A stretch of DNA of 64,000 nt from a virus (Duplodnaviria; Caudoviricetes). Below the pieces are notes generated by a model. That model saw only the letters and a list, made by a program, of their open reading frames with translations. It was not told the DNA's origin and made no database searches. Position 1 is the stretch's first letter, and each line of letters opens with the position of its first letter. The position numbers and the translations under genes are program-made. Location: IMG/VR virus record IMGVR_UViG_3300026549_000040, positions 32,001 through 96,000 of that record, one strand, 5' to 3'. This document shows positions 2,504 through 29,173 of the stretch, in pieces.

Positions 2504-3411
2504 AAAGAACTTTAAGATGGTTAAAGAATGTTCCTTCTAATGTAGAAGGTTCGAATATACAAGAAAAAGATATAGACTTCGGAGAACCTATATTTGTAGA
2601 TAATAACAATGGTTCAATACATGATTTATCTAAAAAATGTAAATCTTACATAGTAATAGGATCACCAGTAGAGCAGGAAGCAGAACGTAAAGTCAGAAAT
2701 GCAGCTGTATTTAAAGGCTTTTGGGATCCAGATCAATCAGATAAATTAGTTTTCTATAAAAATTCTGATCGAGCTGGATTAATAGATGAAGAAGGAAGGC
2801 CGGTATACGCTGATAAATTAGTAACAACTAATGTTGATTTTGGTGATACTGCTTCTGATAAGTACTACATTCTTTGTCAACCAGATATTAATAAAGCATC
2901 TGGGAATGTTCATTATGGAGATATAAATACTTTTAAAATTCCTGCAACTGGTGAATCTGCAGGACAAAATGGTATTTACGTTACTAATAAGGGTATAATG
3001 CACGGTGCTGCATGGAATGATTATGCTGAGAAGCGTCATGTAAAAACAAATGTTTTTCCTGGTACCGTTGTGTGTGAAGTAGGGGATGGATCACTTGTTA
3101 AGTCTTCTGCAAGACTTCAACCATGTCCTTATGTAGTTACAGATACTTATGGTTTTGTTATAGGTGAAGATAAAGATACACCTGTAGCAGTTGCTGGTAG
3201 AGCTTTAGTTTATATAAGCGCTGAAGAGAGAAATTCTGTATCTATAGGCGATTGTTTATGTGCCGGAGAATATGGTAAAGCTTCTATTATGACAAGAGAA
3301 GAGATAAAAGAATATCCTGATAGGATATTAGGTATAGTAACTGGAATTCCAATGGAAGATAAATGGAATGGAGTTGATGTAAATAACAGAGTGTGGATAA
3401 AAATTAAGTAA
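2476..3411 (+). CDS. virion/tail protein with C-terminal intramolecular-chaperone (peptidase G2-like) domain
   Basis: C-terminal NDYAE...GTVV...PVAVAGR...GDCL...ILGIV pattern. Confidence 0.55.
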   Translation: MYDSTKIKLKRTLRWLKNVPSNVEGSNIQEKDIDFGEPIFVDNNNGSIHDLSKKCKSYIVIGSPVEQEAERKVRNAAVFKGFWDPDQSDKLVFYKNSDRAGLIDEEGRPVYADKLVTTNVDFGDTASDKYYILCQPDINKASGNVHYGDINTFKIPATGESAGQNGIYVTNKGIMHGAAWNDYAEKRHVKTNVFPGTVVCEVGDGSLVKSSARLQPCPYVVTDTYGFVIGEDKDTPVAVAGRALVYISAEERNSVSIGDCLCAGEYGKASIMTREEIKEYPDRILGIVTGIPMEDKWNGVDVNNRVWIKIK

Positions 3412-3428
3412 GTTTAATTGGATTATGG

Positions 3429-4022
3429 ATGAATAAGATAAGTTTAAGAGGATATTTAAGAGATATACAGTATTCTCATAATGTTGGTGATATAGAATAT
3501 GAAAAAGCAAATTTAATATGTCCTAATTCTTTTGGCAAAGATGAGGATATAATCTCTCTTAAGTATAAAAAATATTCTAATAAATATAAGGAAGGTGATT
3601 TTATAGAATTAGAAGGTAATTTAAGATCGTATTCTACATCTATAGAAGGAAAAAATTCAGTACAGATTTATGTATTTACTTATTTTGATCTTCCAGATGT
3701 AATATCATCGAATAATACGCAAATAGATGGTAGAGTATGTAAGATGAATGATATAAAAACCACTAACAATGGTAAGAAGTATTTGCACTTTATATTAGCA
3801 AATAATATATTTACAAATAATAACAAGAAGATAAATAATTATATACCATGTACTTGTTATGATGATTTAGCGGAAGAACTTTCTGATTTTGATGTGAATA
3901 CAAAACTTGATTTAAAAGGAGAATTTCATTCACATTATTATAAAAAGTACATTTCTGATGATGAGTTTGAATATAGAATAGCACATGAATTAGTGATAAA
4001 AAGTTATGAAAAACTTGATTAA
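3429..4022 (+). CDS. ssb: single-stranded DNA-binding protein (tandem OB folds)
   Basis: two OB repeats (GNLRSY; GRVCK...NYIPC...GEFHS), clostridial type. Confidence 0.75.
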   Translation: MNKISLRGYLRDIQYSHNVGDIEYEKANLICPNSFGKDEDIISLKYKKYSNKYKEGDFIELEGNLRSYSTSIEGKNSVQIYVFTYFDLPDVISSNNTQIDGRVCKMNDIKTTNNGKKYLHFILANNIFTNNNKKINNYIPCTCYDDLAEELSDFDVNTKLDLKGEFHSHYYKKYISDDEFEYRIAHELVIKSYEKLD

Positions 4023-5064: not shown

Positions 5065-6978
5065 ATGCTGATAAATTTAAAACTAAACAAGAATTTTACA
5101 ACTGCTTTCAATAGATTGTCAAATGAATATGGTACTGACATAGTTGAATTAAATGGTTTTTCAGAAGAACAGTTAAGTTGGACAGACTTTCTTGATAATT
5201 TTGTATCTAAAGAAACAGTAGCAGATGCAACTATTGATGGGAATGCAAATATTGGTACTAAAGATATATGCTCTTTAGAAGCTGAGATGAGTAAACCTCA
5301 TAGTAAGCTAATTGCTTTTAATAAGATCTATCAAGAGCTAAACCAGGAATTTGGATTTAAAGTTGCTAATGATTGGATTCAAAATGAATGGGATGGTCAT
5401 TTTTATCTACATGATGCAGCTAGTTCTACTTATAAACCTTATTGTTATGCATATGATCTGGAAAGATTGGTAAATGAGGGTCTTTACTTTATAGATACTT
5501 TTAATAACCAGCCACCAAAGCACCTTGTAACGTATACAGATTTTGTGGGTGAGTTTGTTAGTTGGGCTAGTAATAGAACAAGTGGTGCTTGTGGATTACC
5601 AAGCTTTCTTATATATTCTTTTTATTTCTGGAGGAAAGATATTGAGAATAACTACTTTGTATCTAGTCCCGAAGCATATAGGGACCAGGAATTTCAGAGA
5701 ATTATATATAAATTAAATCAACCATATCTTCGTGTTAATCAATCTGCTTTTACTAACTTTAGTATTTTTGATAGATCATACTTAGAGTCAATTTTTGGTG
5801 GAAAAGAATTTCCAGATGGTACTTTTATTATTGATTATATTGATGATATATTAGAGTATCAGAAATCTTTTATGGAAGTATGTAGTAAGATAAGATCAGA
5901 TAATATGATGACTTTTCCTGTTTTAACTTTTTCTTTATTGAGAACTAAAGAAGGAAAATTTGTTGATGAAGATTTTGCTAAATGGTGCTGCAGACATAAT
6001 ATGAAATGGGCAGATAGTAATTTCTTTATTAGTGACGATATTACAAGTCTAAGCAACTGCTGCAGGTTACTGTCAGATGTAAAAGAACTTGGTTACTTTA
6101 ATTCTATTGGTGGTACATCATTAGAAGTAGGCAGTATTAAAGTTAATACCATTAATCTTGCTAGGCTGTCCTATGAAAATAAGAAAGCTGATTATCTTGA
6201 TGCGCTAAAAGAAAAAGTATATCTGTGTCTACAGACACTTCATATAATTAGAAATATAATTTCTAAAAACGTACAAAGAGGTCTATTACCAAACTATAGT
6301 CATAAACTTATTAATATGGATTCTCAATATTCAACCATAGGTATTATTGGAATATATGAAACTTTACAAAAATATAGAATGGTAAAGAAGGATGAATTAG
6401 GTTATACTTATTATACGGATTCTGGAATTGAATTTGCAAAATCTATCTTCAATGCTATAAATGAAGTTAAGCAGAAGTTTATAGAAGAGAATGATGTAAC
6501 TTATTCCATAAATATAGAACAGATTCCGGGGGAAAGAGCTGCTTCAATACTTATGCAAAAAGATAAGTTCTTCTTCCCGAAAGAAAAGTATGAACTACCT
6601 TTATATGGTAATCAGTGGATTCCACTTGGTATTAAGACTTCCTTAGATGAGAAGATTAAACTCAGTGCTATACTTGATAAGGCTTGTAATGGTGGATCTA
6701 TTGCTCATATTAATATAGAATCTCCATTTAATAATTTTGAAACTGCCTGGAAGATGCTTAATAAAGTAGCTGATTCTGGAGTTGTATACTTTGCTTTCTG
6801 CACAAGAATAAGTGCATGTAAGCATAATCATGGTTTTTATGGGGATGTTTGTCCTGTATGTGGGGAACCTGTAGAAACAACTTATCAAAGAATAGTTGGA
6901 TTTCTAACTCCATGCAAAACATATAGTAAAGAAAGAAAAGAAGAGTTTAAGCTTAGAGATTGGTTTGATGTGAACTAA
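5065..6978 (+). CDS. nrdD: class III anaerobic ribonucleotide reductase, no ATP cone
   Basis: YLHD, SNCCRL, C-terminal CxxxH/CPVC and RIVGF glycyl-radical loop. Confidence 0.92.
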   Translation: MLINLKLNKNFTTAFNRLSNEYGTDIVELNGFSEEQLSWTDFLDNFVSKETVADATIDGNANIGTKDICSLEAEMSKPHSKLIAFNKIYQELNQEFGFKVANDWIQNEWDGHFYLHDAASSTYKPYCYAYDLERLVNEGLYFIDTFNNQPPKHLVTYTDFVGEFVSWASNRTSGACGLPSFLIYSFYFWRKDIENNYFVSSPEAYRDQEFQRIIYKLNQPYLRVNQSAFTNFSIFDRSYLESIFGGKEFPDGTFIIDYIDDILEYQKSFMEVCSKIRSDNMMTFPVLTFSLLRTKEGKFVDEDFAKWCCRHNMKWADSNFFISDDITSLSNCCRLLSDVKELGYFNSIGGTSLEVGSIKVNTINLARLSYENKKADYLDALKEKVYLCLQTLHIIRNIISKNVQRGLLPNYSHKLINMDSQYSTIGIIGIYETLQKYRMVKKDELGYTYYTDSGIEFAKSIFNAINEVKQKFIEENDVTYSINIEQIPGERAASILMQKDKFFFPKEKYELPLYGNQWIPLGIKTSLDEKIKLSAILDKACNGGSIAHINIESPFNNFETAWKMLNKVADSGVVYFAFCTRISACKHNHGFYGDVCPVCGEPVETTYQRIVGFLTPCKTYSKERKEEFKLRDWFDVN

Positions 6979-7605: not shown

Positions 7606-8541
7606 ATGTTATATGATTTTATTAATGAAGCATTTATCTTAGAGAGTGAAGAACTCAATGAAGATAAAATGGTTAAGTACGATGGAGAATTATCTCCTAA
7701 GTTTGGCTGGTGTGCTATTTACATAGGTGGTCCGGCTTCTGGTAAAGGAACTGCTACTAAGTTTCTTTCTAGATTAGAAGGTGATTATTTTAACGTAGAT
7801 AATCTTAAAGAAATAGAAAGAATGTGGCAGATAACAGATCCTAAGACTGGTAAGCCACACTCAGATAATTTCAAAACACCTTCCGAGATTGTACCAAAAC
7901 TTGATAAAAACGGTGATCCTGTTATAAGTAAAGAAAGAAAAAGCCCGTGGACTGGTAAGAAAACAGGTGGTGAAGAAGTATATTATGATAAATATCGTAA
8001 TATGGGAAATAGTGATTTCGTATCAGAACTTCATGGAGAGATGAAACCTCTTGGTAAGAAATGGCAAAATTCTATGCTTAATAATCCAGAAAATGAAACT
8101 CGTAATAAGGATAGGTTACCGAATCTTATATTTGATATAACGGGTGATGATCCAAGGAAGATTATGAAGATTATCGATCCATTAAAAGCACAGGGTTACA
8201 AAATTGCTATTATTTGGATGCTTACTACACCAGAAAAGGCTATATTAAATAATTTCAAGAGAGATAGAAGTGTAGACGTTAGACAGGTATTACTACCTAA
8301 ACATAAAGGTGTTATGGACGCTGTAGAAGATATGTTCTCTTCTGATAAGATTAAAAAAGTTGATGAATTCTGGGTTATCGATACAGATGCAGGTGTAGAT
8401 CCATTCAAGGATCCTGTAGGTTATCATAATGCACAGAATGTTTATCATATTCCAATTATGCAAGATGGAATTAAAACAATTTCATATATAGCTGATAGAA
8501 TAGCTACTAATAGAGAACAATTGAATACTTATGGCTTTTAA
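7606..8541 (+). CDS. P-loop kinase (zeta-toxin/AAA_33-like)
   Basis: GGPASGKGT Walker A, NVD, IFDITG, NxxRxR lid. Confidence 0.7.
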   Translation: MLYDFINEAFILESEELNEDKMVKYDGELSPKFGWCAIYIGGPASGKGTATKFLSRLEGDYFNVDNLKEIERMWQITDPKTGKPHSDNFKTPSEIVPKLDKNGDPVISKERKSPWTGKKTGGEEVYYDKYRNMGNSDFVSELHGEMKPLGKKWQNSMLNNPENETRNKDRLPNLIFDITGDDPRKIMKIIDPLKAQGYKIAIIWMLTTPEKAILNNFKRDRSVDVRQVLLPKHKGVMDAVEDMFSSDKIKKVDEFWVIDTDAGVDPFKDPVGYHNAQNVYHIPIMQDGIKTISYIADRIATNREQLNTYGF

Positions 8542-9482: not shown

Positions 9483-9511
9483 TTTACAATATTGTAATTG
9501 TATGTTATATT
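9483..9511 (+). promoter_or_regulatory. sigmaA-type promoter of the tRNA/ncRNA island
   Basis: TTTACA-17-TATATT with extended TG. Confidence 0.65.
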
Positions 9512-9590
9512 AATTATACAATCAGGAGTTGATTGGACTATAAGCAATACTTACCCTCTAGTGTATGGGGCAATATACACTAAATAATTT

Positions 9591-9664
9591 TGCGGGATCG
9601 TCAAGTGGCAAGACAACGGGCTCATTACCCGTTACCGTAGGTTCGAATCCTACTCCCGCATCCA
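9591..9664 (+). tRNA. tRNA-Met(CAT), initiator-like
   Basis: cloverleaf, GGG/CCC anticodon stem, loop CTCATTA, CCA end. Confidence 0.85.
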
Positions 9665-9668
9665 ATAT

Positions 9669-9750
9669 GGGGATGCGATGGGCGTTCGACTCGGCTTAAA
9701 CCCAAAGTGAACTGTCGAGGACATCGGTTCGAATCCGATCATCTCCACCA
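9669..9750 (+). ncRNA. minimal tmRNA-like RNA (tRNA-like domain only)
   Basis: GGGGATG/CATCTCC-ACCA with G3:U70, no D stem, TTCGAC...GGAC flanks, canonical T arm; only 28 nt between the flanks. Confidence 0.7.
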
Positions 9751-9764
9751 TATTAATAAATTAA

Positions 9765-9851
9765 GCGGCTGTGTCGGAACTGGCAGACGACTCGGACTTA
9801 AAATCCGATGCTCCTGTGAGCGTGTGGGTTCAAATCCCACCAGCCGCACCA
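9765..9851 (+). tRNA. tRNA-Leu(TAA)
   Basis: cloverleaf with long variable arm, CCA end. Confidence 0.93.
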
Positions 9852-9858
9852 AAGGAAC

Positions 9859-9911
9859 AGACACAAACAGCAAATATGATGTTCTTAATAGGGTAAAAAG
9901 ATATTGTGTCT
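9859..9911 (+). ncRNA. ACAGCAA stem RNA, copy 1
   Basis: AGACACAA/TTGTGTCT stem with ACAGCAA at its inner 5' side. Confidence 0.55.
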
Positions 9912-9938
9912 AGGTAAGTTTTATAGGAGGAAGTAAGC

Positions 9939-11465
9939 ATGGGATTTGTTGAAAACTTAAAAGTAGAACAGAATAACGATAACGAAATGAATCTAACGGA
10001 AAACTTAGCAGTTGCATATAAAACAACTGGTGAGTATTTGTTAGATTTTAATTTTAAGGTAACGAATTTAAGACATTCAAGCTATGAAGATGTAGTTACT
10101 AACTTTAAGAAAGTTTACTACAGTGATAGCACAACAGCATTGAAGTATTTATTCTATGTTGGTGACATTAGATATGGTTTAGGTGAAAGACATATCTTCA
10201 AATCTTGTTTTAAGTGGCTTGCAGAAACTCATGGAGATAAAGTAAAAGGTCTTCTGTTTCTTATTCCAGAATATTCAAGATGGGATGTTCTTGTATCATT
10301 AATTAATTGTGATAATAAGAAGATACAGAAAGAAGTTACTAATATCATCCGTATCCAATTAAATAAAGATAAATATGGCATGCTTAATAACAGATCTATT
10401 TCATTACTTTCTAAGTGGCTGCCATCAGAAAATGCTTCTTCTAAAGAAACAAAAGAGTTAGCAAAGATTGTAAGAACCAATCTTAAAATGACTCCTAAGA
10501 AGTATAGAAAAACTTTGAGTACATTAAGAGCTTATCTTGATGTGGTAGAAACTAAGATGAGTGCAAAAGATTGGGATAAGATAGATTATAGTTCTGTTCC
10601 ATCAATTGCTAATATAAACTACTCAAATGCTTTTATGAAGCATGACCCACAGAGAAGAACACAATACTTAACTGATCTTAAAGAAGGTAAAACTAAGATT
10701 AATGCAGGTGTACTTCAGCCACATCAGATTGTATATAGATATGTTAATGGTCATGATGGGTGGTATAATGATGTTTCAATCAAGTATGATGAAACTTTAG
10801 AAGAACTATGGAAATCATTGCCAGATGTTTGTACAGAATCTACTTTAGTAGTTAGAGATGGTTCTGGTTCAATGTATACTTCTGTTAGTGGAAGAATAAG
10901 AGCTGTGGATGTTGCAACAGCACTTGCTATTTACTGTGCAGAACATACAATGGGTGAATTTAACGATAAGTTTATTACTTTTTCTTCTCGTCCTAAGCTT
11001 GTAGATTTATCTTATTGTGAATCTTTAGCAGATAAGATTGATAAAGCTTATCTTGAAACAGAAATGTCAAATACAAATATTTTTAAAACTATGATGTTGG
11101 TTTTAGATACTGCTGTTAAATATAAGATGAAACAGGAAGAACTTCCACGTAATATTCTTATTATTTCAGATATGCAGTTTGATGGTTCAAGATTTAATCT
11201 ATCAAAATCTTTATTCGATGAAATAAAGGACGAATTTAAGAAGTATGGATATAAAATGCCAAGAATTTGTTTCTGGAATTTAGATCCATATGATTCAGAA
11301 ACTATTCCTCTTAAGCAAAATGATAATGGTTTAATCCTATGTAGTGGATTTTCAATAAATAATTTGAATATGTTTATGAGTGGAGAGATTGATCCTCTTA
11401 AAGTCTTATTAGACATATTAAATTCAAAACGGTATGATGCTGTTGAAGCAGCAATAGATAGATAA
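9939..11465 (+). CDS. DUF2828 / TROVE(Ro60)-like protein with C-terminal vWA domain
   Basis: LTEN, DIRYGLGER, KWLPSE, IDYSSVPS; MIDAS RDGSGSM...T...ISDMQFD; AGGAGG SD. Confidence 0.85.
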   Translation: MGFVENLKVEQNNDNEMNLTENLAVAYKTTGEYLLDFNFKVTNLRHSSYEDVVTNFKKVYYSDSTTALKYLFYVGDIRYGLGERHIFKSCFKWLAETHGDKVKGLLFLIPEYSRWDVLVSLINCDNKKIQKEVTNIIRIQLNKDKYGMLNNRSISLLSKWLPSENASSKETKELAKIVRTNLKMTPKKYRKTLSTLRAYLDVVETKMSAKDWDKIDYSSVPSIANINYSNAFMKHDPQRRTQYLTDLKEGKTKINAGVLQPHQIVYRYVNGHDGWYNDVSIKYDETLEELWKSLPDVCTESTLVVRDGSGSMYTSVSGRIRAVDVATALAIYCAEHTMGEFNDKFITFSSRPKLVDLSYCESLADKIDKAYLETEMSNTNIFKTMMLVLDTAVKYKMKQEELPRNILIISDMQFDGSRFNLSKSLFDEIKDEFKKYGYKMPRICFWNLDPYDSETIPLKQNDNGLILCSGFSINNLNMFMSGEIDPLKVLLDILNSKRYDAVEAAIDR

Positions 11466-11469
11466 AATT

Positions 11470-11534
11470 TAGACACGAACAGCAATTTGCAAGATCAGTT
11501 TTATTAGCTTCAGAAATAATAAAAATTGTGTCTA
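11470..11534 (+). ncRNA. ACAGCAA stem RNA, copy 2
   Basis: TAGACACGA/TTGTGTCTA stem plus ACAGCAA. Confidence 0.55.
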
Positions 11535-11555
11535 GTTCATACTTACCTCCTTTTT

Positions 11556-11637
11556 TAGGCCCTAACAGCAATCAATATGTTTTATAAAAGCTTGTTACTA
11601 TGTTTATTTAGAGAAAATACTTTTATTATAGGGCCTA
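11556..11637 (+). ncRNA. ACAGCAA stem RNA, copy 3
   Basis: TAGGCCCTA/TAGGGCCTA stem (compensatory changes) plus ACAGCAA. Confidence 0.55.
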
Positions 11638-11645
11638 GCCTATAT

Positions 11646-11721
11646 GACCCATTAGCTCAGTCGGCAGAGCACCTGACTTTTAATCAGGGTGTCCGGAGTT
11701 CGAATCTCCGATGGGCCACCA
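11646..11721 (+). tRNA. tRNA-Lys(TTT)
   Basis: cloverleaf, CCA end; A2:C71 mismatch. Confidence 0.92.
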
Positions 11722-11725
11722 AAGA

Positions 11726-11802
11726 GGACCATTAGCTCAGTAGGTTAGAGCATCCGGCTCATAACCGGCAGGTCGTAGGTTCAAGTCCTACATGGTCCAC
11801 CA
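11726..11802 (+). tRNA. tRNA-Ile2(CAT), lysidine type
   Basis: cloverleaf closely resembling Firmicutes Ile2 (GGACC...GGTCCA). Confidence 0.85.
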
Positions 11803-11844
11803 AATATAACTTTTATATGATGAATATTAAAATATAACTTTTGT

Positions 11845-11997
11845 ATGATGGATACTAAAAAACCTTATGTACTTTTAGAAGATATTGTAGGATTTTATGA
11901 AAAGTTAAATAAACTTAAAAAAAGTCATTATCCTATAAGATATATAAAGTATATAATGAAAAAAGATTTTGATAAACTTGATATAAAGTTTTTATAA
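11845..11997 (+). pseudogene. 50-aa ORF, possible decayed endonuclease fragment
   Basis: AT-rich ORF after a 28-bp tandem duplication; C-terminus loosely like phage PD-(D/E)xK endonucleases. Confidence 0.25.
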
Positions 11998-12001
11998 ATA
12001 T

Positions 12002-12077
12002 GGAGCTTGTCCTCGACGGTATTGAGGGCTGGTCTTATAAACCAGTACACGAAGTTCAACTCTTCGGGGCTCTACCA
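12002..12077 (+). tRNA. tRNA-Ile(TAT)
   Basis: CTGGT-CTTATAA-ACCAG anticodon arm, CCTC/GAGG D stem, T arm, ACCA end. Confidence 0.8.
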
Positions 12078-12083
12078 AAATAT

Positions 12084-12268
12084 AACTTCATGGCAATCCA
12101 ACATAAGTAGTTCTAGAACAATGCTTATGAGATAGCCGCCTGAAGCAACAGGTCGACTTTAATAAAGGGACGGAGTCGATACAACAATACTCACCGTGGG
12201 TTGATCACCACAAGAATTCCGGAAATATAGAGAAAGAATCCGTAGAACGAGCTTGAAGCCATGAAGTT
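12084..12268 (+). ncRNA. unknown structured RNA (~185 nt)
   Basis: 11-bp closing stem AACTTCATGGC/GCCATGAAGTT with several internal hairpins. Confidence 0.55.
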
Positions 12269-12275
12269 TACTTAT

Positions 12276-12349
12276 GTGATATTAGTGTAAGGGTAGCATA
12301 TCTGCCTTCCAAGCAGTTGGTATGAGTTCAAATCTCATATATCACTCCA
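12276..12349 (+). tRNA. tRNA-Gly(TCC)
   Basis: cloverleaf, TCCA end. Confidence 0.9.
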
Positions 12350-12351
12350 TA

Positions 12352-12751
12352 ATTAAGGGAACGGAAAACAGCGGATGCCCATAAAGAGAGAACCTGTCCG
12401 AAAGGTTCTGGAGTGTAGTGGCTACTCGGCTACCCTTAATAACTGATTTTATCCTGAATTATGTTACGGGCGCCACGGTGTCAGTAATCCGCCATAGTGG
12501 GGTATACCAAATGACGACTCCCCAGGGGTCCGGACATAAATAAGATAGAATTGGTAAAGTCCAGGTCAGCTCAAGACTATAAAAGGAAAAAAATAAGGCT
12601 CTTTGGCTGAACGAGGGCCACATACATGGGTTGTGACCCTTACGCTCATAGGTTTATTCCATACCAGTGAGAACATGATTTAAAAGGAATACGTTATCCA
12701 GTTTGCGTAAAATTATGGTTTGTAGTTATCCTTATACTGGAGAAAAACTAC
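12352..12751 (+). ncRNA. cluster of unknown structured RNAs
   Basis: closing stems ATTAAGGG/CCCTTAAT and ACTGATTTTATC/GATAGAATTGGT, plus hairpins and pseudoknot pairings; no plausible ORF. Confidence 0.45.
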
Positions 12752-12757
12752 TTATAT

Positions 12758-12833
12758 GCTCCCGTAGTCTAACGGATAGGACACGTGGTTTTCATCCACG
12801 TAATGCGGAGTTCAACTCTCCCCGGGAGTACCA
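12758..12833 (+). tRNA. tRNA-Glu(TTC)
   Basis: cloverleaf, CCA end. Confidence 0.9.
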
Positions 12834-12843
12834 TATACGAGGT

Positions 12844-12916
12844 CGCCGCAAAAGTAATGATCTCATCTCCCAAGTCGTAGTAAGATTTGTGCGGTGAAAG
12901 CTTGGGAATATCATAT
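12844..12916 (+). ncRNA. pseudoknotted spacer RNA
   Basis: CGCCGCA/TGCGGTG crossing TAATGAT/ATCATTA and TCCCAAG/CTTGGGA. Confidence 0.45.
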
Positions 12917-12921
12917 TATAT

Positions 12922-12998
12922 GTCCGTGTAGCCGAATTGGCATAGGCATCTGACTTAGGATCAGAATTTTGGGGGTTCGAGTCCTCTCACGGACACCA
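12922..12998 (+). tRNA. tRNA-Leu(TAG), short variable loop
   Basis: TCTGA-CTTAGGA-TCAGA; 5-nt variable region. Confidence 0.85.
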
Positions 12999-13000
12999 AT

Positions 13001-13087
13001 CGAGGGTTGTCCGAGTTGGTTTAAGGTGCCAGTCTTGAAAACTGGTGGACGATAGTCCCCTGGGTTCGAATCCCAGACCCTCGGCCA
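13001..13087 (+). tRNA. tRNA-Ser(TGA)
   Basis: cloverleaf, long variable arm, GCCA end. Confidence 0.92.
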
Positions 13088-13088
13088 T

Positions 13089-13173
13089 CGGAGAGTAGCG
13101 TAGTGGCGAACGCAGCGGACTGTAAATCCGTGACATAGAAACATCGGTGGTTCGAGTCCACCCTCTCCGACCA
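13089..13173 (+). tRNA. tRNA-Tyr(GTA) with C1:G72
   Basis: CGGAGAG/CTCTCCG-ACCA; GCGGA-CTGTAAA-TCCGT. Confidence 0.9.
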
Positions 13174-13189
13174 TTATAATTTACAATTA

Positions 13190-13264
13190 GGTCTGGTCGT
13201 TCAATGGATAGGATAGTGGATTGTCGCTCCACAGATCAGAGTTCAATTCTCTGTCAGACCGCCA
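13190..13264 (+). tRNA. tRNA-Asp(GTC)
   Basis: cloverleaf, GCCA end. Confidence 0.88.
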
Positions 13265-13269
13265 AAACA

Positions 13270-13480
13270 GTTGTAAGTCTGTAAGAGTATTCGGTTCAGC
13301 CTTTACCGCTCGTAAAACTTTCCGTGATGACAATCGTTAAGGTCAAGTGGTGGTAAGCACACAGCCAATGTAAAGTGTGGTTAAAGGTTAGAGAAATGCA
13401 GAAAGAGACGGCGATAACCGTTCAGACGTATCCTGAAAGCATAGTAAATAATCAACGATGCAAGATGCAGATCTCGTAAA
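13270..13480 (+). ncRNA. unknown structured spacer RNA (~210 nt)
   Basis: GTCTGTA/TGCAGAT, AGCCTTT/AAAGGTT, TGAC/GTCA and ACGG/CCGT stems. Confidence 0.4.
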
Positions 13481-13487
13481 TATTTAT

Positions 13488-13564
13488 GGCTCCATAGTTC
13501 AGTTGGTAGAGCGGCAGGTTGAAGCCCTGCGCTTGCGATAGTTCAATTCTATCTCGTTCCACCA
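13488..13564 (+). tRNA. tRNA-Phe(GAA) with mismatched acceptor stem (possible pseudo/decoy)
   Basis: GCAGG-TTGAAGC-CCTGC; acceptor GGCTCCA/TCGTTCC has three mismatches. Confidence 0.7.
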
Positions 13565-13571
13565 CAAATAT

Positions 13572-13648
13572 CTGGGTATGGCTCAGTTTGGTAGGGCATC
13601 TGATTTGGGTTCAGAAGGTCGCAGGTTCAAATCCTGCTACCCAGACCA
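13572..13648 (+). tRNA. tRNA-Pro(TGG)
   Basis: cloverleaf, C1:G72, ACCA end. Confidence 0.92.
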
Positions 13649-13767
13649 TATAAAGCGCAGAATGGCTACCAGTCAACCGATTGCAAGGTTTTACTGAAAT
13701 ACAGTTTCGTGCGCTATATAAATAGATAGCCCCGTATGTGATGTAGGACTGGCGCATTACAAAATTT

Positions 13768-13842
13768 GGTCTATTGGTATAATGGTAATTATATTCGGTT
13801 GTCAGCCGAAAGATACGTGTTCAATTCACGTATAGACCGCCA
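13768..13842 (+). tRNA. tRNA-Asp(GTC), second copy
   Basis: TTCGG-TTGTCAG-CCGAA, GCCA end. Confidence 0.88.
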
Positions 13843-13968
13843 AACAAAGCACGCTTTATAGCCCAAGCAGACCCACCCTTACTCTGGCAAGCTATAAAGA
13901 AGACGATATAATAACATGTCACACAAGTAGTGTAACGGGAGGGGTGACAACTTTTATGGAAATTATGT

Positions 13969-14044
13969 GGGTTGGTAGCTTAAATAGTGAAGCGGTCGCC
14001 TGTTAAGCGACAGAGTGTGGGTGCAAGTCCTACCCTTCCCGCCA
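13969..14044 (+). tRNA. tRNA-Asn(GTT)
   Basis: GTCGC-CTGTTAA-GCGAC; two T:T pairs in acceptor; T loop TGCAAGT. Confidence 0.8.
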
Positions 14045-14050
14045 TAATGT

Positions 14051-14127
14051 GTAGCCTTAGTTTAATTGGTAAAACGCCAGTCTCCAAAACTGGAAGATAT
14101 GGGTTCGAGTCCCAATAGGTTATGCCA
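14051..14127 (+). tRNA. tRNA-Trp(CCA)
   Basis: CCAGT-CTCCAAA-ACTGG, GCCA end. Confidence 0.85.
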
Positions 14128-14132
14128 ATAGT

Positions 14133-14289
14133 TCCTATATGCGCAATAGGATGGTGGAAAAGAACGACGAAGCAATAAGCGAGTGTAATGGTTCAAATCC
14201 AAAGTCGGAAGTAGGGTAGAAACGCAAGTAGTAGCCCAAAAGTCCTGTTCGTTATTGTGGATAGTAAACGTATCCCAATCAACTACCAT
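14133..14289 (+). ncRNA. unknown structured RNA containing a T-loop
   Basis: ATGGTGG/CTACCAT closing stem; TGG-TTCAAAT-CCA T-arm mimic. Confidence 0.4.
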
Positions 14290-28261: not shown

Positions 28262-29173
28262 ATGAGTTATCTTAACAGAACACTACCACACACAAACGCT
28301 TTTGGTACTGTGGATATTTCATCTGCAACATCGGTACATGACGCACTTTCCCTTTCAGGTATGGATTGGAAGGTGGATTCAAGACCAATCTTCGATGTAA
28401 CAGGTAAGAAGTTCCCTAACTATGTAGCTAATGTTAGACAGGACACAGATGAACTTCTCGGTATTGTAACAGATAGGTATAGAATCGTTCAGAATGAAGA
28501 GGCTTTTGAATTTGTAAATAATCTTTCTTCTGAAGGATTTGAGTTTGAAAGTGCCGGGGTATTTAAGGGTGGCAGATCTACTTGGTTGATGGGACATCTT
28601 CCTGAAGAAACTATTCTCGGTGATGATATTGCGAATAATCTTGTATTTGTTAATTCACATGATGGATCGTCAGGTGTAAAAGTAATGATGACACCTGTAA
28701 GAGTTATTTGTTACAACATGCTTAACTTAGCATTACGTAGAGCCAACAGATCTTGGTCAACTAAACATACTACAAGTATTTATTCAAAACTGGAAGAAGC
28801 ACAGCATACTTTAGGACTCGCTCAGAAGTATATGGATGAACTTAAGATTGAAGCAGATAGACTTGCTAACATTACTATTACAGATAATGAAATTGAAGCA
28901 ATCTTTGATAAGATGTTTCCTGTAGATCCTGCTAAAGACTCTGCAAGAAAAATTAGAAATGTATCTACTTTGAAGGATGGTTTTATTAAATGTTATGATG
29001 AATCTGACATTAGAAAATTTAAAGGTACTGTCTATGGTGCAATTAATGCTATGGCAGATCTGGTAGATCATAAAGCACCCGCAAGAGTTACAGCAAATTA
29101 TTACGAAAATAATTGGAATAGACTTATCAATGGTCATTCAATGCTTGATACTTTCTATAGACTTGCAAGTTAA
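28262..29173 (+). CDS. DUF932 (TIGR03299-like) phage/plasmid protein
   Basis: Y.IVQNEEAF, NSHDGSS, TPVRVICYN motifs. Confidence 0.85.
   Translation: MSYLNRTLPHTNAFGTVDISSATSVHDALSLSGMDWKVDSRPIFDVTGKKFPNYVANVRQDTDELLGIVTDRYRIVQNEEAFEFVNNLSSEGFEFESAGVFKGGRSTWLMGHLPEETILGDDIANNLVFVNSHDGSSGVKVMMTPVRVICYNMLNLALRRANRSWSTKHTTSIYSKLEEAQHTLGLAQKYMDELKIEADRLANITITDNEIEAIFDKMFPVDPAKDSARKIRNVSTLKDGFIKCYDESDIRKFKGTVYGAINAMADLVDHKAPARVTANYYENNWNRLINGHSMLDTFYRLAS

Follow-up and report, generated by a model that had tools for sequence, protein, structure and literature searches.

The closest described counterpart of the RNA studied here is that of Mycobacterium phage DS6A, already published as a 'TLD only' tmRNA, consisting of the tRNA-like domain (TLD) alone (Hudson, Lau & Williams 2014, PMC4131195; PMC11915505), and listed on the tmRNA Website as tmID 11587 (PMC4131195; 2025 database paper PMC11915505). 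A similar molecule, chargeable or not, is reported to strongly inhibit E. coli tmRNA, perhaps through titration of SmpB (Mao et al. 2009 as cited in PMC4131195; the inhibition is repeated in PMC11915505). Plastid forms devoid of a coding sequence, about 65 bp long, were added in the 2025 database paper (PMC11915505). According to a review (PMC3929946), the TLD fragment associated with SmpB mimics a whole tRNA, binds the ribosomal A site together with EF-Tu, has been crystallised with that factor on the ribosome, and supports the template-free synthesis of polyalanine in vitro.

The DS6A RNA is located at positions 28479-28561 of JN698994, in an unannotated gap between gp33 and gp34, and its score was not above the Rfam threshold. 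Its interior reads AAAACC-GCAC-GCGG-UA, which corresponds to the motif of the family described below (an A-rich run, CC and a short hairpin). We compared it with an RNA gene present in a window of 64,000 nucleotides, the whole stretch of DNA analysed here, which represents bases 32001-96000 of a 144,875-bp IMG/VR virus record (IMGVR_UViG_3300026549_000040) classified as complete by CheckV. Both RNAs are phage-encoded, measure about 80 nt, share a GGGG...CUCCA acceptor stem with G3:U70 and a T arm, and contain neither a tag ORF nor pseudoknots. They differ in that DS6A has a high-GC actinobacterial host and an RNA with GGUCGAC and GGCAC instead of UUCGAC and GGAC, whereas the window copy belongs to a low-GC, 145-kb myovirus-type phage, lies in a tRNA array and possesses an unstructured 18-nt loop and an encoded CCA. 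The window RNA displays features of the DS6A type, namely a length of about 70-100 nt, tmRNA ends joined by a short hairpin, no tag, and no SmpB encoded by the phage. It adds a member to a class of RNAs that is known but has hardly been described, the phage TLD-only tmRNA.

Other systems share part of this design. The tmRNAs of jakobid and oomycete mitochondria and the plastid forms of about 65 bp also have no tag frame and rely on an SmpB encoded elsewhere (PMC11915505), but they are vertically inherited and constitute the only tmRNA of their compartment, whereas the window RNA adds to the host's own complete tmRNA. The engineered TLDs, such as that of T. thermophilus with a UUCG loop (PDB 2CZJ; PMC3929946), are near-identical in design, with about 25 nt from the 5′ end and about 34 nt from the 3′ end joined by a short loop; these are laboratory constructs, while the window mini-tmRNA is a natural gene under selection. 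Full-length tmRNAs of the mycobacteriophage Bxz1 group and of Bacillus phage G, often near tRNA clusters, and two-piece tmRNAs like those of Melnitz and other marine myophages (PMC9004378) are phage-borne as well, but all of them keep the mRNA-like domain and the tag. The first-pass annotation had attributed tag-less forms mainly to jakobid and oomycete mitochondria; the organellar forms stand, but the phage precedent of DS6A (PMC4131195, PMC11915505) had been missed. The two roles that it had put forward, an SmpB/EF-Tu decoy and a tag-less rescue RNA, are the same functions as those discussed in the literature.

A BLAST search of the window RNA and three family members against 50,697 cultured-phage records returned no further mini-tmRNA, so that DS6A is the sole cultured carrier that we name. 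Two matches were rejected as mini-tmRNAs, that of Vibrio phage D479 being an ordinary tRNA and that of Synechococcus phage S-CAM1 a complete two-piece tmRNA. The latter, of the cyanobacterial type (RF01851, 128 bits), is located at L219:555-823, i.e. about 108674-108942 of HQ634177, in a stretch that has no annotated feature in the record and adjoins tRNA-Arg and tRNA-Val.

Direct inspection of positions 9669-9750 on the + strand returned exactly the sequence, and the sequence elements, that had been described beforehand (Table 1). The acceptor stem (GGGGAUG/CAUCUCC) comprises 7 bp with G3:U70, a discriminator A and an encoded CCA. The D-loop analogue ends with UUCGAC, after which tandem G.A pairs lead into helix 2a (UCGGC/GUCGA); this helix closes the 18-nt loop and is followed by GGAC and by a T arm whose loop is of the GGUUCGAAUCC type.

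Table 1. Coordinates of the mini-tmRNA, its elements and its immediate surroundings in the window.
Feature	Position	Strand	Remarks
Promoter-like site TTTACA-17-TATATT with TG	9483-9511	+	10/12 matches; upstream of the RNA cluster; weak
tRNA-Met(CAU)	9591-9664	+	4 nt upstream of the mini-tmRNA; ARAGORN, Rfam 57 bits
Mini-tmRNA gene, tRNA-like domain only	9669-9750	+	82 nt including the encoded CCA; RF00023 51.1 bits; family covariation
Acceptor stem, 5′ strand GGGGAUG	9669-9675	+	Pairs with 9740-9746; G3 of G3:U70 at 9671
D-loop analogue (CGAUGGGCGUUC), conserved GG, without D stem	9676-9687	+	Aligned to the tmRNA consensus ..uGGa..UUC
Helix 2a, 5′ strand (G.A, A.G, then C-G and UCGGC)	9688-9695	+	Pairs with 9714-9721
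18-nt interior loop UUAAACCCAAAGUGAACU	9696-9713	+	Stands in for the entire mRNA-like domain and pseudoknots
Helix 2a, 3′ strand GUCGA, and GGAC junction	9714-9722	+	Sequence, model alignment, family covariation
T arm AUCGG-UUCGAAU-CCGAU	9723-9739	+	100% of cells paired in 84 sequences
Acceptor stem, 3′ strand CAUCUCC, with A and CCA	9740-9750	+	U70 at 9744; discriminator A at 9747; CCA at 9748-9750
tRNA-Leu(UAA)	9765-9851	+	14 nt downstream of the mini-tmRNA; ARAGORN, Rfam 56.1 bits

To the Rfam tmRNA model RF00023, the gene aligned with 51.1 bits (gathering score 47, E 3e-17) over model positions 1-374, 14 nt taking the place of 308 central positions. The tRNA model gave 24.1 bits against a cut-off of 29 and aligned the acceptor and T arms only; neither a D arm nor an anticodon arm was recognized, and there is no NGC anticodon such as a canonical tRNA-Ala possesses. 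The earlier description of an RNA with G3:U70 and A73 but neither a D stem nor a 7-nt anticodon loop is thus borne out, as is its assignment to tmRNA and not to tRNA. The permuted (two-piece) tmRNA model RF04321 reached 24.7 bits for a cut-off of 47, and the order of the elements is the standard 5′-to-3′ one, closed by a hairpin, unlike that of a two-piece tmRNA. The tRNA-Sec model gave 17.3 bits. ARAGORN, which called 18 tRNAs elsewhere in the window, called neither a tRNA nor a tmRNA at 9669-9750.

The mRNA-like domain, with its resume codon, tag frame and stop, is absent: 18 nt separate the two strands of helix 2a, and ARAGORN reported no tag. Pseudoknots PK1-PK4 are likewise absent, with no sequence to form them. 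The interior loop UUAAACCCAAAGUGAACU contains no ORF and no stable fold; it keeps an AAACC motif and is predicted as an open 18-nt loop, with no inner hairpin predicted. The architecture pattern matched the window once and none of 100 shuffled sequences. Single-sequence minimum free energy folding missed the tRNA-like fold and was not better than for shuffles (z -0.75), a result that is uninformative for RNAs of this tRNA-like type. The sequence and the model alignments support the identification of 9669-9750 as a tmRNA tRNA-like domain that is encoded by the phage, has alanine identity and lacks the mRNA-like domain.

A pattern search of phage genomes revealed the same architecture of about 80 nt on more than 119 IMG/VR phage contigs, representing 88 distinct sequences, mostly of 80-83 nt. 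This first pattern fixed the GGGG and the discriminator, as well as UUCGAC and the GG of the D loop, so that the (near) invariance of GG and UUCGAC in the resulting alignment was imposed by the search. Pair and covariation counts were derived from this alignment (A1) of 84 sequences, in which 82.6% of the cells form standard pairs, compared with 61.6% in shuffles. The covariation score was 0.492 versus 0.114 for shuffled alignments, with none of 500 shuffles reaching it and slid controls not exceeding 0.106. In the T stem, all cells are paired and three positions show 3-5 pair types; in helix 2a, five pairs present changes on both sides.

Among the matches listed, the closest relatives of the window copy are L016, L054 and L116. 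All three keep the 82-nt form, with compensatory changes in helix 2a (U-A to A-U or G-C) and in the T stem (A-U to U-A), and the mini-tmRNA, at 85-92% identity, is the sole segment conserved between them and the window, the flanks being otherwise unrelated. A recent deletion from a full-length tmRNA, which the first-pass annotation had named as an alternative, therefore fails as an explanation. Furthermore, the complete phage G030 (123.6 kb) possesses a full-length tmRNA of 392 nt and, in addition, a separate mini-tmRNA of 82 nt, which indicates a gene in its own right and not the decay product of a sole tmRNA gene. In this phage, the full-length tmRNA is located at L217:89-480 (94 bits; ARAGORN 'Tag not identified') and the mini-tmRNA, with a different acceptor stem, at L218:87-168. 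On these comparative grounds, the mini-tmRNA is a real, conserved gene, neither a recent deletion nor a relic.

Rfam called tmRNA above threshold in 12 of 13 tested members and in all 38 larger carrier records, with scores of 50.7-81.1 bits; the window copy is among the lowest of the family (51 bits against a range of 51-81). ARAGORN never called the 80-nt gene as such, either in the window or at the 119 loci listed. Analysis of the interiors of the matches listed revealed an A-rich NAR..CC motif in 98 of 138 and an inner hairpin in 109 of 138. A reading frame of zero length, in which a UAA stop would act as resume codon, was considered and rejected, since a stop opens the loop in only 40 of the 138 interiors.

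The carrier phages are very diverse. When one genome of each of 185,579 bacterial and archaeal species was searched, the strict pattern was found in 16 places, mostly on small contigs of metagenome-assembled genomes, one of them being a 130,604-bp contig listed as viral by IMG/VR. No tRNA gene lies nearby at 90 of the 119 loci listed. The recurrent neighbors are head genes, one group of mini-tmRNAs lying between the large terminase and portal genes and another directly before the major capsid gene. Structured RNAs were observed close to some members. In L016, the closest of the relatives listed, a ROOL RNA (RF03087, 286 bits) at 3239-3835 on the - strand lies directly 3′ of the mini-tmRNA (3860-3941), within a large tRNA array; the window contains no ROOL match. 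A Pistol ribozyme is present in L034 (6093-6154), about 100 nt upstream of the mini-tmRNA, and four type II hammerheads surround the mini-tmRNA in L097:517-2359. These flanking self-cleaving ribozymes may process the transcripts in L034 and L097.

Since the first search pattern fixed part of the acceptor stem, the family was rescanned with the core only (UUCGAC ... GGAC and T arm), leaving the acceptor stem free. A perfect 7-bp acceptor stem was found in 152 of 158 distinct sequences among the matches listed. Among the 154 members with at least 6 pairs, G3:U70 is present in 152 and A73 in 153, while CCA is encoded in 57; acceptor-stem positions 5-7 vary freely in the family. The near-invariance of G3:U70 and A73 in a search that left the stem unconstrained argues for selection on the alanine identity set, even if the conserved G3:U70 might reflect some other constraint.

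The phage of the window comes from cattle-gut samples. It has a G+C content of 31%, and nearly all its genes lie on one strand. It encodes a T4-type major head protein, a portal, a terminase, a prohead protease, an endolysin and an anaerobic ribonucleotide reductase. The head protein is at most 31% identical to its counterparts in Bacillus, Listeria and Streptococcus myoviruses. The large subunit of the anaerobic ribonucleotide reductase is located at 5065-6978 (+), and this enzyme points to an anaerobic host. Near-identical DNA was found in bovine-gut runs and in runs labelled as skin metagenome, from at least two studies beyond the probable source.

tRNA-Met, the mini-tmRNA and tRNA-Leu open a 5-kb island holding all 18 tRNAs that ARAGORN recognized in the phage, none of which is a tRNA-Ala. 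Upstream of this island, the ORF at 7606-8541 (+) shows a weak match to a Zeta-toxin (kinase-like) domain. Within the island, a tRNA-Phe(GAA)-like gene at 13488-13561 (+), detected by Rfam (41.7 bits) and missed by ARAGORN, has three acceptor-stem mismatches and is perhaps defective or non-canonical. In a part of the island that contains no tRNA, a block of about 70 nt at 12179-12251 (+) shows 93% identity to L054:4546-4619, on a contig otherwise unrelated and with diverged flanks. This block matches no Rfam family and forms no stable fold (z +0.99), and an exact search with its core found it in none of the other viral contigs.

The tRNA-Met(CAU) gene is likely the start of a shared transcript of the tRNA cluster. 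The promoter-like site upstream (Table 1) is of a kind that is no more frequent in this region than chance predicts. The mini-tmRNA stretch is covered by contigs of two RNA-library runs made from one sample, which may derive from DNA, one of these contigs beginning at 9532. Over 9532-14237, the depth of these contigs is 3-8 times that of the flanking contigs, whereas it is flat in the DNA run. As contigs give no transcript ends, strand or level, this raised depth is a weak hint of expression.

How such an RNA would act can be proposed from the partners that its conserved elements address. We slightly favor an action on the ribosome, in which the mini-tmRNA would be alanylated, bind host SmpB and EF-Tu, and compete with the host tmRNA at stalled ribosomes. 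It would be transcribed with the phage tRNA cluster, trimmed like a tRNA and charged with alanine by the host AlaRS through G3:U70 and A73. Host SmpB would then bind in place of the anticodon arm, and EF-Tu would deliver the complex to ribosomes stalled on broken mRNAs, where it would compete with the host tmRNA. The nascent chain would gain one or more alanines but no SsrA degradation tag, since resume codon, tag ORF and stop codon are all missing from the RNA, and release after peptidyl transfer would depend on other host factors. During infection, the net effect would be to divert or inhibit the tagging performed by host trans-translation and to uncouple rescue from degradation tagging. Genes for SmpB, peptidyl-tRNA hydrolase (Pth) and RF-1/ArfB-type factors are all absent from this phage and SmpB from the 38 other, larger carrier records, from which we conclude that the mini-tmRNA would depend on the host's SmpB. 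Several points weigh against this ribosome-acting role: the phage encodes no candidate for the release step following peptidyl transfer, the window copy scores in the lowest range of the family, its inner hairpin is missing, and the inhibition in E. coli was obtained without chargeability (Mao et al. 2009, via its citation in PMC4131195).

A passive SmpB sponge, the main alternative, would suffice to account for this last observation, as relayed in PMC4131195. In this case, the mini-tmRNA would titrate host SmpB, perhaps also AlaRS or EF-Tu, away from tmRNA and block trans-translation, but would never act on the ribosome. The lack of SmpB in the carriers fits such a sponge, as does the retention of all SmpB-facing elements of the TLD (GG of the D loop, UUCGAC/GGAC and helix 2a). 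A sponge, however, has no need of alanine identity, yet G3:U70 and A73 are maintained while neighboring stem positions vary. It is because the charging signals are kept almost without exception, although inhibition in E. coli, as cited in that source, requires no chargeability, that we prefer ribosome action and regard a pure sponge as possible but rather unlikely. An alanine-charged tRNA-like RNA could also serve another use. It might be a decoy or antidote against host defences in which the acceptor or T arms of tRNAs are sensed or cleaved, or it might provide template-free alanine tailing as a signal. The polyalanine synthesis described for the TLD fragment with SmpB (PMC3929946) is compatible with such tailing. 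Moreover, most of the loci listed are free of tRNA genes and many lie within the head-gene block, which suggests a role of their own apart from tRNA supply. In the flanks of these loci, however, no conserved protein partner or defence-related neighbor was found, and we consider this other use improbable.

Two further explanations have a very small probability. The next gene of the island, at 9939-11465 (+), encodes a DUF2828 and DUF7788 protein (phrog_850, 'RNA-binding protein') whose nearest neighbors in feature space, as a lead only, are viral TROVE and vWA_Ro60 (Ro60-like) proteins. Bacterial Y RNAs (YrlA) contain tRNA-like modules, and the mini-tmRNA could by analogy be a Y-RNA-like tRNA mimic, partner of this protein in a phage RNA-quality-control particle. 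We rejected this partnership: a Ro-like homologue is found in none of the flanks of the 119 other loci listed and in one of 38 whole carrier records, 18 kb from the mini-tmRNA. The matches listed for 9560-9870 at E values up to 10 do not include YrlA, and those of the YrlA model elsewhere in the island are sub-threshold and overlap ordinary tRNAs. The Ro-like gene is bracketed by three other stem elements, at 9859-9911, 11470-11534 and 11556-11637, which each have a terminal helix of 8-10 bp and an inner AACAGCAA and make better candidate partners for its product. The ssrA gene is a frequent integration site of phages, which carry its 3′ end with them, and the tRNA cluster of the window contains the perhaps defective tRNA-Phe-like gene mentioned above; both would be in keeping with a non-functional remnant, whether a decayed tmRNA, a degenerate tRNA-Ala, an attP-type ssrA fragment or the acceptor piece of a two-piece tmRNA. 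Against such a remnant, both halves of the RNA are present and covary, close relatives retain the 82-nt form with compensatory changes, the permuted tmRNA and tRNA models stay below their cut-offs, and the family spans very diverse phages. An integration remnant in particular was rejected, because this phage has no tyrosine integrase. Of the 39 records searched, with this phage counted among them, 6 encode one, mostly far from the mini-tmRNA.

Returning to an action on the ribosome, the mini-tmRNA might be an active, alanine-charged rescue RNA and not a sponge, which together with host SmpB would free ribosomes on cleaved mRNAs while adding only one or more alanines. We hold this form of the proposal to be doubtful. 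If it were true, phage proteins would be spared SsrA-directed proteolysis, for instance where phage transcripts are cut by RNases or abortive-infection systems of the host. The family would then represent an RNA-based counter-measure that is widespread among phages, as well as a minimal form of trans-translation occurring in nature.

Trans-translation, the main bacterial pathway of ribosome rescue and protein quality control, is also targeted by drug development. The phage RNAs of this large family keep exactly the half of tmRNA that faces AlaRS, EF-Tu and SmpB and discard the tag, which suggests that phages routinely manipulate this pathway. The family is large, conserved and almost purely phage-borne, and it probably disturbs the process by which the host tags stalled proteins. 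The 80-nt genes were missed by ARAGORN in the window and at the 119 loci listed, the DS6A copy is unannotated in GenBank, and Rfam labels mini-tmRNAs as 'tmRNA' without revealing the missing tag. These RNAs form a natural series of minimal tmRNAs that could be used to probe what becomes of the ribosome if peptidyl transfer is not followed by a resume codon.
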